A DNA stretch of 59,763 nucleotides, the filler included, from an uncultured Methanosarcinales archaeon (GTDB lineage Archaea > Nanobdellota > Nanobdellia > Woesearchaeales > CAYSVS01): the NCBI GenBank assembly GCA_964589485.1. It is 3 parts of 3 records of this genome, joined end to end, with 100 filler letters (N's around TTAATTAATTAA, not from the genome) between each part and the next. Parts side by side here need not be neighbours in the genome. Positions count along the whole stretch, not along the records: positions 1 to 30,786 come from CAZPRK010000014.1; 2 more parts are not named here. The stretch is one strand, 5' to 3'. Under the pieces are notes generated by a model. That model ran no database searches and had not been told where the DNA came from. It was given only the letters and a program-made list of their open reading frames with translations. Below, piece by piece: positions 5,675 through 9,707 of this stretch. Position 1 is the first letter of the stretch; the number at the start of each line of letters is the position of its first letter. A program made the translations under genes and the position numbers.

Positions 5675-6259
5675 CTATTGAGCTTCCTCAAACCTTTTTA
5701 CAACAACCTCCCAATCAACTGCAGAAATAAATGCATTAATGTATGCAGCTCTATCCATGTCATAATCCATGATAAATGCATGTTCAAATACATCCATAAC
5801 TAACAAAGGAACAGCTCCACCTAAGTGACCAACGTCATGTTCATTTATCCAAACATTGAACAACTTTTTTTCTTGAGGATCATAAGCCATAATTACCCAA
5901 CCAATTCCTCTCATTTTACCAGTTGCTACAAAATCGTCATGACATCCTTGACCTGTTCCAAAAGTTTCAACCATTAATTTCATTAAAGGATGATCATCTG
6001 GAAGTTTTTTTTGTTCTTTATTCATATTACCAAAATAAAGTTCATGTAATCTCATTCCGTTAAATTCCCATCCAAATCTTCTTTTAACTTCTGCCCATTC
6101 TGGGCTTCCTGGAGTTAAACTTTTCATTAATTCCATTGCTTTGTTTGTATTAACAACATAACCAGAATATAGTTTAAAATGAGTTTGTAGTAATTTATCA
6201 CTAAACCCTGTTGTTCCTAATAATGAACTAAAATCTTTTTCTTCATACATACTAAACAC
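5675..6259 (-). CDS. sod: Fe/Mn superoxide dismutase
   Basis: Metal-ligand motifs THFKLY, RLHELYF and DVFEHAF. Confidence 0.93.
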   Translation of the reverse strand: MFSMYEEKDFSSLLGTTGFSDKLLQTHFKLYSGYVVNTNKAMELMKSLTPGSPEWAEVKRRFGWEFNGMRLHELYFGNMNKEQKKLPDDHPLMKLMVETFGTGQGCHDDFVATGKMRGIGWVIMAYDPQEKKLFNVWINEHDVGHLGGAVPLLVMDVFEHAFIMDYDMDRAAYINAFISAVDWEVVVKRFEEAQ

Positions 6260-6260
6260 C

Positions 6261-6824
6261 TCACAATTTTCCTACTAAATCTAAACCTGGTTTAAGAGTT
6301 TCTTCTCCAGGTTTCCAATTCATAGGACAAACTTGTCCTTCGTTCTTTGATACGAATATAGTAGCTTCTAATTTTCTCAATAGTTCTGCACTACTTCTTC
6401 CAATACTATTATCGTGTAATTCAAAAGCTTTTACTAATCCTTCTGGATCAATAATAAAAGTTCCTCTTAGACTTAATCCTTCTTCTTCAATTAAAGTTCC
6501 ATAATTTCTACATACAGATAATGTAGGATCAGCTAACATTGGAAACTTAATTTTTCTAATAGTTTCACTTGCATCATGCCATGCTTTGTGAACAAAAGCT
6601 GTATCTGTTGAAACTGAAATAACTTCTGCTCCCATTTCTTTAATTTTTTCATAACTTGCAGCTAATTCTCCTAACTCAGTAGGACAAACAAATGTAAAAT
6701 CTGCAGGATAGAAAAACAAAACAACCCATTTTCCTTTATAGTTAGATAAACTTATTTTTTTAACTTCACCTTCTACAAATGCATCTGCATTAAAGTCTGG
6801 TGCTTCTTCATTAATTCTTACCAT
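6261..6824 (-). CDS. ahpC: 2-Cys peroxiredoxin AhpC
   Basis: FYPADFTFVCPTE and C-terminal VCP motifs. Confidence 0.95.
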   Translation of the reverse strand: MVRINEEAPDFNADAFVEGEVKKISLSNYKGKWVVLFFYPADFTFVCPTELGELAASYEKIKEMGAEVISVSTDTAFVHKAWHDASETIRKIKFPMLADPTLSVCRNYGTLIEEEGLSLRGTFIIDPEGLVKAFELHDNSIGRSSAELLRKLEATIFVSKNEGQVCPMNWKPGEETLKPGLDLVGKL

Positions 6825-6934
6825 TGTAACATACCTCCTATATAATTTAAAGAAAATGTAGCTTTATTTTAAAGTTTACTATTGTTAACAAGATAAGCAG
6901 ATGAAGAAAACTGGAAAAAATGGGCAGAAAAACT

Positions 6935-7162
6935 TTAACCCAAAGCTTTTTCAATTGCCTCAGCATCAAACCCAACAATAACTTTATCATTAACAACAAT
7001 TACTGGAACTCCCATTTGACCAGATTTATCAATCATTTCTTTTTGAGCTTTTTCATCAGATGAAACATCATGATCTGTAAAATCTACTTTTTTTTCTCCT
7101 AAATATTCTTTTACTTTTTTACACCAAGGACATGTTGGCGTAGAATATACAATTACACTCAT
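6935..7162 (-). CDS. Glutaredoxin-like protein (YruB/NrdH-like)
   Basis: YSTPTCPWC, SGQMGVPV and VGFD motifs. Confidence 0.92.
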   Translation of the reverse strand: MSVIVYSTPTCPWCKKVKEYLGEKKVDFTDHDVSSDEKAQKEMIDKSGQMGVPVIVVNDKVIVGFDAEAIEKALG

Positions 7163-7172
7163 TTCTTATCAC

Positions 7173-7796
7173 CTATTTCAATACTTTATTTGTTTTCAAA
7201 TACCAAACATAAAAATCTAATTCATCTAAATTCATATTTACTTTCTCAGACAATGATTTAAACTTATCTTCAATTTGTAAATACATATTTTTATTTAATG
7301 ATTTGGGTTTTTCATTTAATAAACCATGTTCAACCATCATATTAATAATATGTCGATCCAATATTGCTAAATTTTCATAACCAATATTCCTCATAAAATG
7401 ACTCGCTTCTTTATACCCAAGTCCTTTTATATTTTTTACAAGCCATTCTCTTGCTTCTATTTCTTCCATCGGTTGAATTATATCTTTAATATTAATAAAA
7501 TGTCTAGCACCAACAATATACTTTGCTTTATTGTTATGAAATCTATGTTTATTTTTAATTATACAATTTCTAACTTCATCTTCAGATGCATTAATGAACC
7601 CATCTTCTTTTAATTCTTCCTGAATATTTATTGCAGTTTGAGCTTTCGAATTAGCAGTCAGTAAACAAAAACAAAGTTCAGAAAACCATCTATTATTATC
7701 ACTTTCATGAACTTTTTTAAAATCACTCAATCTTGAATCTATAACATTCTTAATTTCAGTAGTTCTTAATTTTTCTATATCTTTTATTAATTTCAT
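7173..7796 (-). CDS. ogg: 8-oxoguanine DNA glycosylase/AP lyase (Ogg2 type)
   Basis: ELCFCLLTAN, HRFHN, KGLGYKEASHFMRN, AILDRHI and a C-terminal Lys. Confidence 0.93.
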   Translation of the reverse strand: MKLIKDIEKLRTTEIKNVIDSRLSDFKKVHESDNNRWFSELCFCLLTANSKAQTAINIQEELKEDGFINASEDEVRNCIIKNKHRFHNNKAKYIVGARHFINIKDIIQPMEEIEAREWLVKNIKGLGYKEASHFMRNIGYENLAILDRHIINMMVEHGLLNEKPKSLNKNMYLQIEDKFKSLSEKVNMNLDELDFYVWYLKTNKVLK

Positions 7797-8434
7797 CTTG
7801 TTGTTTCAACACCAATTCTAGGACATTCATGCTCAATTGGACATTTACTACAATGGGGGCTAATAGGCCTGCACAAATTTTGACCAAATGCAACAAATAT
7901 ACTATTAAAAGTTATCCAATAACTTTCAGGTAATTTCTTTCTTAACTCCATTTCAGTTTCATATGGAGTTTTTGTTTCAACATACCCCAATCTATTCATT
8001 ATCCTATGAACATGTATGTCAACACATATTGCTGGTTTTTTGAAAGCAATTGCAACAACTAAATTTGCAGTTTTTCTTCCTACTCCTGGAAGTGTAACCA
8101 AATCATCAATATTATTTGGAACTCCATTAAACTGTTTTAATGCATCTGGCAATTGCTTTAAATATTTTGCTTTGTTTTGATAAAAACCAACAGGATAAAT
8201 TAAATCTTGAATTTCTTTTTCAGAGAATTTTTCTAAATCTTCAGGTATATTTATTTTTGCAAATAACCTTTTACAAACTTCAGCAGTTGTTTCATCTTTA
8301 GTTCTAGCACTTAATATTGTTGCAATAAGAACTTTAAAAGGGTCTTCTGTTTGAATTTCAATTAAATCAACAACTGGGACATTATAATTAACAACTTCTT
8401 TTTTTAGAATTTTGTAGACGTTGTCAATATTCAT
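7793..8434 (-). CDS. nth: Endonuclease III
   Basis: HhH motif LPGVGRKTAN, VDIHV, and Fe-S motif C-x6-C-x2-C-x5-C. Confidence 0.95.
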   Translation of the reverse strand: MNIDNVYKILKKEVVNYNVPVVDLIEIQTEDPFKVLIATILSARTKDETTAEVCKRLFAKINIPEDLEKFSEKEIQDLIYPVGFYQNKAKYLKQLPDALKQFNGVPNNIDDLVTLPGVGRKTANLVVAIAFKKPAICVDIHVHRIMNRLGYVETKTPYETEMELRKKLPESYWITFNSIFVAFGQNLCRPISPHCSKCPIEHECPRIGVETTR

Positions 8435-8553
8435 CCACGGCCCCTACACTTCCCTGTACATAAACTACATCCACCACCGCATCCTTCTTTTCTAGAATAA
8501 GATATAGTAGAATTAGGTGTATACAACTCTTGACTTGAGCTAGTGTATTCCAT
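8431..8553 (-). CDS. 40-aa Cys/Gly-rich micro-protein
   Basis: MEYTSSSQELYTPNSTISYSRKEGCGGGCSLCTGKCRGRG. Its TGA overlaps the nth ATG (ATGA coupling). Confidence 0.6.
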   Translation of the reverse strand: MEYTSSSQELYTPNSTISYSRKEGCGGGCSLCTGKCRGRG

Positions 8554-8554
8554 T

Positions 8555-8635
8555 TTATTTACTTTGATACATTATTTCTTGTTGACTATCGCCACGTTCT
8601 AAAGGTTGTTTTAATCTTCCATCATATCCACACAT
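8555..8635 (-). CDS. 26-aa micro-protein
   Basis: MCGYDGRLKQPLERGDSQQEIMYQSK, AGGTGA SD, stop 1 nt before the next ATG. Confidence 0.55.
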   Translation of the reverse strand: MCGYDGRLKQPLERGDSQQEIMYQSK

Positions 8636-8640
8636 TTACA

Positions 8641-8724
8641 TCACCTTCTATATCCTAATTCTCCGCCTCTTTCATACATTGGAGTTGAACTAGGTATATA
8701 ACCTTGATTTATACTATTGTACAT
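8641..8724 (-). CDS. 27-aa micro-protein
   Basis: MYNSINQGYIPSSTPMYERGGELGYRR, starts 2 nt after the previous stop. Confidence 0.5.
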   Translation of the reverse strand: MYNSINQGYIPSSTPMYERGGELGYRR

Positions 8725-8726
8725 TT

Positions 8727-8819
8727 CTACTTACTCTCATAACTATCTATAATATTTTTTAAAGCTTGGTCCATTTTACCATATGCTTCTTCATCTGAAT
8801 CTCCACCATAATTTACCAT
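8727..8819 (-). CDS. 30-aa micro-protein
   Basis: MVNYGGDSDEEAYGKMDQALKNIIDSYESK, GGAGGT SD 8 nt upstream, TTTATATA box near 8860-8868. Confidence 0.6.
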   Translation of the reverse strand: MVNYGGDSDEEAYGKMDQALKNIIDSYESK

Positions 8820-8990
8820 TTTAACATACCTCCGTATATCATTAATCCATTCAATGTAAATATATAAACCTTTCGCACAAAACATGACTTTTAAGTCTCA
8901 GTAATAAATTAAAACCACAGTTTATCTTCAATATAGAAAATAATAAAAAAAACCAGTTAATATTTTATATTACTAACACAAAACAAAAAT

Positions 8991-9707
8991 ATGAGTCTCG
9001 ATCAAGCTTTAGAAAGGCAAAAAAAAGTTTTGCGATCTGGAATAAAGAATAGAACTTTAACAAGTCAATTAGAAGTTGAAGCAGATTATAAAAGAATTCT
9101 TAATGCGATAGAAAACAATGAATTATCAGAAGATTTAAGAAAAGAATTTACAACAATATTAAATGAAAAGATTAATGAAGAATTTAATACTAGAACAAGG
9201 CGTGTTAGTAAAGGGGAACATTACGAAGCCCCTGGAGCTTGCGCATTAGCAAAAACAAAACAACAAAAAAAGAAATTAGAAAGAGCTCTACAAAAAAATC
9301 AAGAAAGAATAGACGTATTTGATGAAGTTAGTAATGGTCAAGCTAGCTATATTATGAAGTTAGTAACTCATGCAACTAAAAGAGAAAAAGAAAGAGTAAG
9401 AAATTCATTACATAATTTTTTAGAAAGTAAATACACTTCATTATTAGAAGAAATAAAATATGGAGCAAAATCTTTAATACAAAATGCTGTTGAAATAAAA
9501 AGATTAATAGGCAATTATTCACACAGTCAAAGATTAAAACAAAGTATAGAAATCGGAGAAAAAAAACAATATGAATGTTTACTTTATTTTATAACAACTG
9601 GTCAAGAACATTTAGTACCTATGACTATCCCTATAGCAAAAAAATACAATGATTTACAAAGGTTAGAAAATGCTGTTTTATTTGGAAGGCTTAACCAACA
9701 ACATTAA
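8991..9707 (+). CDS. Hypothetical helical protein
   Basis: 238-aa ORF with no recognised motif. Confidence 0.65.
   Translation: MSLDQALERQKKVLRSGIKNRTLTSQLEVEADYKRILNAIENNELSEDLRKEFTTILNEKINEEFNTRTRRVSKGEHYEAPGACALAKTKQQKKKLERALQKNQERIDVFDEVSNGQASYIMKLVTHATKREKERVRNSLHNFLESKYTSLLEEIKYGAKSLIQNAVEIKRLIGNYSHSQRLKQSIEIGEKKQYECLLYFITTGQEHLVPMTIPIAKKYNDLQRLENAVLFGRLNQQH

Follow-up and report, generated by a model that had tools for sequence, protein, structure and literature searches.

A conserved four-cysteine micropeptide gene, preceded by three orphan small open reading frames, heads a predicted oxidative-stress operon in an uncultured archaeon

In anaerobes, genes for rubredoxins and other small rubredoxin-like proteins with four cysteines (Cys4) accompany perR and rubrerythrin, in a setting that calls for a protein supplying electrons for peroxide reduction. 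A synthetic 16-mer ferredoxin maquette, FdM1, with the spacing C-x3-C-x2-C-x2-C, is described as assembling an oxygen-sensitive [4Fe-4S] cluster in vitro, the all-Gly maquettes Mq3 and Mq4 of the same spacing as doing so at 21% and 19% of the FdM1 yield, and the cysteine spacing is called immutable for cluster formation, after earlier studies (PMC10946529). Among archaea, some zinc-finger micro-proteins of Haloferax volcanii are reported to be important for stress adaptation (PMC6562870, PMC11241148). Here we analyze a 59,763-nucleotide (nt) stretch of DNA, the window, from what appears to be a small-genome, low-GC marine archaeon of the Woesearchaeales (GTDB lineage), in which positions 8431-8819 of the minus strand hold four ATG open reading frames (ORFs A to D; 30, 27, 26 and 40 amino acids, aa) end to end. 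The sequence evidence identifies the last of these, ORF D, as a real, new and conserved Cys4 micropeptide gene that heads a predicted oxidative-stress operon, after three orphan small ORFs of uncertain status. Contig C14 supplies window positions 1-30786 only, and positions 30787-59763 are N or belong to other contigs.

The array and the signals around it are as follows.

8727-8819, minus strand: ORF A, 30 aa, acidic, Tyr/Gly-rich, no Cys; orphan
8641-8724, minus strand: ORF B, 27 aa, Tyr/Gly/Ser-rich; orphan
8555-8635, minus strand: ORF C, 26 aa; orphan
8431-8553, minus strand: ORF D, 40 aa, Tyr/Ser-rich N-terminus and C-terminal C-x3-C-x2-C-x3-C-R-G motif
8858-8869, minus strand: TATA-like A+T-rich stretch, TTTATATATTTA, as read from the sequence
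8828-8833, minus strand: Shine-Dalgarno-like GGAGGT, 8 nt ahead of the ORF A ATG
8641-8646, minus strand: Shine-Dalgarno-like AGGTGA, 5 nt ahead of the ORF C start

Spacers of 2, 5 and 1 nt separate A from B, B from C and C from D, the four ORFs lie in reading frames 2, 0, 1 and 0, and the TGA of ORF D shares the ATGA at 8431-8434 with the ATG of nth, the gene that follows. ERG is common to ORFs B and C, and the C-terminal end of ORF D reads GCGGGCSLCTGKCRGRG. Read from a second ATG further upstream, at 8885, ORF A would have 52 aa, but that start is located ahead of the TATA-like stretch; that stretch is possibly the archaeal promoter of the operon, its place suiting a transcript start shortly ahead of the GGAGGT. 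A sequence-only reading of this DNA had listed the four ORF lengths, the three spacers and the overlap with nth, the TATA-like box, the GGAGGT at the head and the AGGTGA before the third ORF, and Tyr/Gly/Ser-rich peptides of which two share ERG and the last has a Cys-rich end; every one of these elements was located as described.

Sequence comparison shows ORF D to be, as far as conservation can tell, a genuine gene of a family without Pfam or NCBIfam annotation. The family has 14 members including the window copy, approximately 35-57 aa long. Genome members occur in eight of 401 sampled genomes of the order (this one, G002, G014, G099, G026, G597, G601 and G135), as found by profile and pattern searches of those genomes followed by reading of the loci; among the roughly 125 pattern matches, 30 automatic and 13 fetched loci were read and the rest were judged by 35 matched letters, and more members are possible. 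Genomes flagged as unpublished underpin none of the claims made here. Metagenome protein sets hold six members (P0003-P0008). Among 1.84 billion representative proteins, profile searching found six matches at E ≤ 0.001, a 12-sequence profile run against a set of 5.8 billion clusters returned eight at E ≤ 0.01, two of them new, and a search with a 4-sequence alignment led to the metagenome contig L052, which is a true D-family locus; matches of 24-90 nt in bacterial genomes obtained with the same alignment were rejected as spurious, judged from the table alone. When 401 genomes were searched with a profile at the class level, the window's own copy was the one convincing member, eight weak matches (E 0.006-0.05) being left unopened. 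Within this genome the D gene is single copy, and it ranks first of 25,585 stop-to-stop segments (E 2.4e-5) against a profile from which the window and G002 copies had been left out. The copy in G002, which belongs to the same genus, has 36-38 aa, is 42% identical and sits in the same place, one micro-ORF from nth.

The 12 aligned members all keep the initial Met, one Tyr, four Cys and one Gly, a second Tyr is almost invariant, and the consensus is M..Y..NDY...Y...SY...GCGxGCNPCxGC[RK](G). The alignment has a hydrophilic N-terminus rich in Tyr, Ser and Asn and a C-terminus of the form C-x3-C-x2-C-x2-C-[KRQ]; the canonical C-x3-C-x2-C-x2-C spacing is present in 13 of the 14 members, window D having x3 in the last gap, and the G014 copy has a fifth Cys outside the motif. 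Searches of Pfam and NCBIfam with four D members at E ≤ 10 yielded no family, only faint matches to PF12669 (E 0.12) and to radical S-adenosylmethionine (SAM) methyltransferases, the latter arising via the CX3CX2C string. A likeness between D and superoxide dismutase (z 5.4) was dismissed as a Gly-rich artefact. Among open-access papers and bioRxiv preprints we found no description of the D family, nor of Cys-rich small ORFs that accompany rubrerythrin and PerR in the operons of archaea of this kind.

The association of D-family genes with peroxide-stress genes is uniform: at all nine loci with readable flanks, D directly precedes, in the same orientation, a peroxide-stress gene or a micro-ORF leading into one. 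The gene orders are given below.

Window: D-nth-ogg-grx-prx-sod
G002: rubrerythrin, micro-ORFs a', b', d' (the D copy) and e' (Zn-ribbon), then nth-ogg-reverse rubrerythrin
G014: Fur-family regulator, rubrerythrin, 46-aa Cys ORF, D, reverse rubrerythrin
G099: NifU/IscU-like protein, DUF1858-like ORF (sub-cut-off Pfam match), D, rubrerythrin, glutaredoxin, thioredoxin-reductase-like ORF
G026: D, 5 nt ahead of peroxiredoxin
G597: Fur-family regulator, rubrerythrin, CxxCxxC micro-ORF, D, reverse rubrerythrin, pyridine-nucleotide disulfide reductase
G601: glutaredoxin, D, rubrerythrin, reverse rubrerythrin
G135: Fur-family regulator, 49-aa Cys ORF, D, rubrerythrin, reverse rubrerythrin
L052 (metagenome contig): anaerobic ribonucleotide reductase, 51-aa ORF, D, rubrerythrin

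Rubrerythrin or reverse rubrerythrin is found at the D loci of G002, G014, G099, G597, G601, G135 and L052; the other companions over the nine loci are glutaredoxin (three), a Fur-family, PerR-like regulator (three), peroxiredoxin (two), nth-ogg (two) and a NifU/IscU-like protein (one). The gap from the D-family gene to the next gene is about -4 to 56 nt. Because that next gene is rubrerythrin, reverse rubrerythrin, peroxiredoxin or a Zn-ribbon ORF at the loci outside the window, the proposal of the sequence-only reading that the array controls oxidative DNA repair was too narrow: D accompanies peroxide-stress genes generally, not nth-ogg specifically.

In the window, the genes that follow D, and the gene on the other side of the array, are these.

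7793-8434, minus strand: nth (endonuclease III, HhH-GPD), Pfam PF00730, E 3.4e-27
7173-7796, minus strand: 8-oxoguanine DNA glycosylase (Ogg-HhH), Pfam PF22175, E 8.4e-66
6935-7162, minus strand: glutaredoxin, Pfam PF00462, E 2.8e-21
6261-6824, minus strand: peroxiredoxin (AhpC/TSA), Pfam PF00578, E 5.2e-42
5675-6259, minus strand: Fe/Mn superoxide dismutase, Pfam PF02777, E 4.5e-22
8991-9707, plus strand: divergent 238-aa gene, nothing above curated cut-offs in Pfam/NCBIfam, best Pfam E 0.0023

The row nth, ogg, grx, prx and sod, which continues into a 154-aa ORF, is co-directional and tightly packed, and its co-transcription with the array is predicted. Where the genus mates have rubrerythrin, this genome has superoxide dismutase and peroxiredoxin in the operon instead, and its defence may thus have changed from the anaerobe type to the aerobe type. 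We also note that the divergent 238-aa gene occupies the position held by rubrerythrin and the Fur-family regulator in genus mates.

For ORFs A to C the evidence comes from composition, and here the codon signal is a stronger argument than the packing. Under a definition of chains as ATG ORFs of 25-70 aa with gaps of -4 to +6 nt, the 1.16-Mb genome has one chain of at least four ORFs, the A-D array itself, so that the search for similar arrays elsewhere in the genome found none of that length; three-ORF chains are at expectation (4 observed vs 3.2). Markov-1 random genomes (60 replicates) contain a mean of 0.13 chains of at least four ORFs each, and the tiling is for that reason only mildly unusual. 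Codon log-odds, with 508 long ORFs of this genome as the training set, are per codon 0.90 for A, 0.51 for B, 0.72 for C and 0.30 for D, with the ORF's own open frame the best in each case, compared with medians of -0.34 to -0.36 for spurious small ORFs and 0.56 for 27-codon pieces of true genes. Among spurious controls of 25-45 aa (535 same-strand off-frame, 908 antisense), none in either set scores as high as A or C, 0.4% off-frame and 0.8% antisense match B, and 0.6% and 9.4%, respectively, match D. The GC content of the array region (0.33-0.355) is as in coding DNA, and that of the flanking spacers is 0.17-0.25. At least a 5-mer of the Shine-Dalgarno core GGAGGTGA lies upstream of 14.5% of 856 long-ORF starts vs 2.1% of 5000 internal ATGs; such 5-mer sites are present for A and C, and B, D and nth are without one. 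Gene-like codon usage, Shine-Dalgarno sites and intact starts thus tip the balance somewhat towards translation of A to C.

The frame changes along A-D are real and not assembly slips, because contigs from four sequencing runs (marine/seawater metagenomes) agree exactly: they are letter-identical and gap-free over the covered parts of the array, and no variants within 8423-8990 were found among them. Two of the four runs are possibly the source of the window DNA; the other two contributed a 984-nt contig (8051-9034) and a 385-nt contig (8407-8791).

Two three-ORF chains were seen elsewhere in the genome. One, at about 24313 of contig C10 (minus strand), has ORFs of 27, 54 and 48 aa that are charged and helical-looking, and may consist of real small genes; the other is at about 162487 of contig C1 (plus strand), and one of its ORFs looks like ribosomal protein uL29.

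Homologues of A to C were sought in 40 relatives, two of the same genus included. ORFs B and C had no match at E ≤ 1 outside their own genome. A 52-aa ORF A query had matches at E ≤ 1 in five of the 40 (best 0.087); none of the five is at a related position, and four fall within frames of 255-881 aa. Within the array, ORFs B and D are weakly alike (z 3.3, shuffle p 0.012), and paralogy of A or B with the D N-terminus was not demonstrable with an N-terminal profile that missed even a left-out D. The start region of ORF A (8813-8843: Shine-Dalgarno site, spacer, ATG GTA A..) is 90% identical over 30 nt to the start of peroxiredoxin (6818-6847), approximately 2 kb downstream, a likeness with E 4.6e-4 for the genome; it could stem from duplication of a short segment or from convergent evolution of a strong start site. 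That ORF A is a decayed peroxiredoxin N-terminus was rejected, with only the 30-nt start region alike and a protein comparison at p 0.39-0.45.

At the position of the array, between rubrerythrin and nth, the genus mates G001 and G002 have two mutually conserved micro-ORFs, a' and b', of which a' reads MGCEGCxGC... with a Lys/Glu tail. Neither these nor a further family of 46-51 aa from G014, G135 and L052 matched A to C in pairwise and profile comparisons. We did not accept A as an ortholog of a', or B+C as one of b', the pairwise, profile and DNA tests all being non-significant and the DNA test uninformative, as its D/d' control failed too; a correspondence of a'-b'-d' with A-(B+C)-D based on order is conceivable but unsupported.

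Several kinds of small ORF recur in these leaders. An M-G-C-x-x-C-x-x-C type, with a ferredoxin-like triad and a Lys/Glu-rich tail, stands beside rubrerythrin in G001, G002 and G597, and G601 has a shorter MCGGGCC variant. A third micro-ORF family, of 46-51 aa (MVEM..C..GKC ... IE.DL), is directly upstream of the D gene in three loci; in G014, the last 4 nt of its member are shared with the D-type ORF, counted from the listed TTG start, and the family has no Pfam entry and was not found in this genome. The micro-ORF b', with 58-67 aa, is rich in Tyr, Ser and Asn, ends ...DCSSGWC(V/I)SVEK and immediately precedes nth or the D copy; since MAFFT aligned its Cys region with that of D, it is possibly a divergent D-family paralogue.

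L002:849-947: CxxCxxC micro-ORF
L061:2378-2470, minus strand: CxxCxxC micro-ORF
L097:923-1093: CxxCxxC micro-ORF type or its shorter variant
L098:1654-1761, minus strand: CxxCxxC micro-ORF type or its shorter variant
L020:1638-1778, minus strand: 46-51-aa family
L099:3222-3371, minus strand: 46-51-aa family
L052:726-881: 46-51-aa family
L002:1063-1266: b' of G002, conserved with that of G001
L061:2159-2335, minus strand: b' of G001, conserved with that of G002

Four ORFs of coding-like composition in different frames are what one longer gene broken by frameshifts would leave, whether as a pseudogene or as a sequencing artefact, but this origin is hardly credible here. The contigs of the four runs are identical, all relatives of D are stand-alone ORFs of approximately 35-57 aa with their own start, none of the homologous loci examined has one continuous protein, and the D-family profile matched none of 7623 longer candidates (>100 aa) at E ≤ 0.01, which is weak evidence. 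The stop-to-stop open frames of A and B overlap by only 1 nt, and those of B and C are 8 nt apart with a stop in every frame there, because of which neither junction can be bridged by a single indel; the open frames of C and D overlap by 14 nt, the sole such overlap in the array. The view of the sequence-only reading that this is not a decayed gene is thus supported, the region being coding-like in codon usage. A structured RNA was ruled out as an explanation by an Rfam scan with nothing near gathering score (best snoR31, 21.1 vs 44 bits), a tRNA search that found none and a fold no better than those of shuffles (z -0.82). What deserves more weight, as a possible though doubtful account, is that only D is a gene and that A to C are a non-functional leader, either fast-decaying remains of a' and b' or chance ORFs: A to C are without homologues, G001 and G002 carry their different, mutually conserved pair at this place, the order a'-b'-d' could fit A-(B+C)-D in a locus that has lost rubrerythrin and the Fur-family regulator, and four-ORF chains do arise by chance. 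Yet gene-like codon usage falls in the exact open frame of each of A to C, at a level equaled by 0-0.8% of spurious ORFs, two of the three have Shine-Dalgarno sites, no intact parent gene is found among the relatives, and comparison with a' and b' by protein, profile and DNA gives no significant likeness, the DNA test being underpowered (its D/d' control failed).

The other two alternatives concern what the peptides do. It is quite improbable that D, perhaps with other peptides, is the Cys-rich precursor of a radical-SAM-modified, ribosomally synthesized and post-translationally modified peptide (RiPP) such as SCIFF/ranthipeptide; the nearest look-alikes in a language-model comparison are SCIFF and FibroRumin precursor clusters (0.78 and 0.77, under the meaningful level of 0.9), and the genome has one radical SAM-SPASM protein, on contig C1, and ten other radical SAM matches, but a radical SAM gene is adjacent at none of the nine D loci, the sole SPASM gene is on another contig than D, and D has four Cys, not six, and no Pfam or NCBIfam precursor match. 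Very improbable, in turn, is a translational relay, with the small ORFs serving in cis as regulatory upstream ORFs or leader peptides by which translation of nth and the genes downstream is set, the peptides themselves being unimportant: the stop-start distances of 2, 5, 1 and -4 nt and the constant position of D-family genes just ahead of a stress gene would suit it, but the amino acids of D (Cys spacing, flanking Gly, Tyr positions, terminal K/R) are conserved before varied downstream genes, which indicates a function of the peptide, and A to C are not conserved at all, hence there is no conserved relay.

The reading that we prefer, with D a genuine gene for a metal-binding micropeptide, A to C lineage-specific cistrons and the whole an oxidative-stress row, has in our estimate a little better than an even chance of being right as a whole. 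Weighing against it are the rarity of the D family, with eight of 401 genomes and eight proteins in the set of 5.8 billion clusters; the orphan status of A to C, no homologue of ORF A having been accepted among the 40 relatives, and ORFs of 26-30 aa possibly being untranslated; the rate at which random genomes yield such a chain; and an AlphaFold2 prediction on the 12-sequence alignment with no confident fold (mean predicted local distance difference test score 56.6, predicted template modelling score 0.16). The x3 before the last Cys of window D may mean different binding or none, since the maquette spacing is stated to be immutable (PMC10946529). Further, neither a rubrerythrin nor a Fur-family gene, the family's commonest companions elsewhere, is found in this 99.9%-complete genome; as both genus mates have rubrerythrin just upstream of the micro-ORFs and nth, with a Fur-family regulator in G001, the locus has, by this comparison, been remodelled here.

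The best reading of D itself is a predicted metal- or Fe-S-binding micropeptide, because its family's Cys spacing equals the maquette spacing and its neighbourhood is one of iron and redox proteins. The claims of the sequence-only reading survive in part: the likeness of the D terminus to a metal/Fe-S motif stands and that to a RiPP precursor is weakened by the lack of a maturase at nine loci, and the postulated micropeptide operon does contain a conserved small gene coupled in sequence to nth, but not a conserved set of four peptides. In the model that we propose, the array opens, at the 5' end, a row of co-directional oxidative-stress genes, A-B-C-D-nth-ogg-grx-prx-sod. Translation would probably begin by Shine-Dalgarno initiation for A and C and by predicted stop-start coupling for B, D and nth, with A, B and C as lineage-specific small cistrons in the same leader. 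ORF D would be a soluble micropeptide of approximately 40 aa whose C-terminal four-Cys cluster most likely holds a metal centre, at best guess an oxygen-labile [4Fe-4S] cluster or a related Fe-S or Fe centre, and which, made alongside the peroxide-defence and repair enzymes, could act as a small partner in redox reactions or cluster handling, whether by donating electrons, by storing clusters or as a sensor.

Small proteins are routinely overlooked in annotation, and the D family had no Pfam or NCBIfam entry. If its Fe-S binding is true, the family is a natural test case for short CxxCxxC peptides as minimal ferredoxins and an added component of peroxide defence in DPANN-type archaea, whose very small genomes make each retained gene informative. 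Several unrelated Cys-rich micro-ORF families fill the leaders of PerR/rubrerythrin/nth operons, and micro-gene turnover can thereby be compared directly between close genomes. A wider proposal, which we regard as unlikely in its entirety, is that the D family is the natural, gene-encoded counterpart of the ferredoxin maquette, carrying [4Fe-4S] on an 11-residue C-terminal C-x3-C-x2-C-x2-C loop and, in DPANN-type archaea, serving rubrerythrin, peroxiredoxin and Nth (itself an Fe-S enzyme) as an oxygen/peroxide-sensitive electron donor or cluster store; the MGCEGCGGC-type CxxCxxC micro-ORFs of the same operons would act alongside it, and the leaders would be nurseries of minimal metal-binding peptides, with A to C as young members or derivatives. 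If that were true, a D-family carrier would be smaller than typical ferredoxins (approximately 55 aa or more).

Compared with described systems, the D family falls, on its sequence features, outside the ferredoxin, rubredoxin, SCIFF and C(P)XCG zinc-finger families. With bacterial-type [4Fe-4S] ferredoxins (CxxCxxCxxxCP) it shares a CxxCxxC triad plus a fourth Cys, small size, solubility and a redox link, but its order is reversed, with the lone Cys first, it has no CP, and it is about 40 aa long vs at least 55; Pfam ferredoxin models gave no match at E ≤ 10, and with neither the CxxCxxCxxxCP motif nor a domain match D was rejected as a bacterial-type ferredoxin. Like the rubredoxins, D is a small Cys4 protein encoded beside Fur-family regulators and rubrerythrin, but rubredoxin has two CxxC knuckles approximately 30 residues apart and D one contiguous Cys cluster; this difference in pattern, and the lack of a Pfam match, exclude it from that family. 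SCIFF-type Cys-rich radical-SAM precursors (PF13165) are similar in length and enriched in Cys at the C-terminus, but they contain six Cys and require a radical SAM/SPASM maturase encoded beside them; D was rejected as such a precursor (PF13165, TIGR03973) with no model match at E ≤ 10, not six Cys in approximately 45 residues and a maturase adjacent at none of nine loci. Membership among the FeoB-associated Cys-rich membrane proteins (PF12669) was likewise rejected, the match being to the window copy only, at 13.1 bits vs a cut-off of 27 (E 0.12), and the N-terminus hydrophilic. The H. volcanii micro-proteins are, like D, archaeal, below 70 aa and equipped with four Cys, but as described in PMC6562870 and PMC11241148 these form two C(P)XCG pairs around a loop, zinc-ribbon-like, and those of D lie within 11-12 residues at the extreme C-terminus; no two C(P)XCG motifs occur in the D alignment, and D was not accepted in this group. 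Closest are the maquettes (PMC10946529): the Cys spacing is identical in 13 of the 14 D-family members, the surroundings are Gly-rich, and the natural GCGAGCNPCxGC(R/K)G closely resembles Mq4. Maquettes are designed and are not genes, the D family adds a Tyr/Ser/Asn-rich N-terminus of 20-40 residues, and cluster binding in the natural peptide is proposed by analogy only; by that analogy, the D family would work most like a minimal ferredoxin or maquette.

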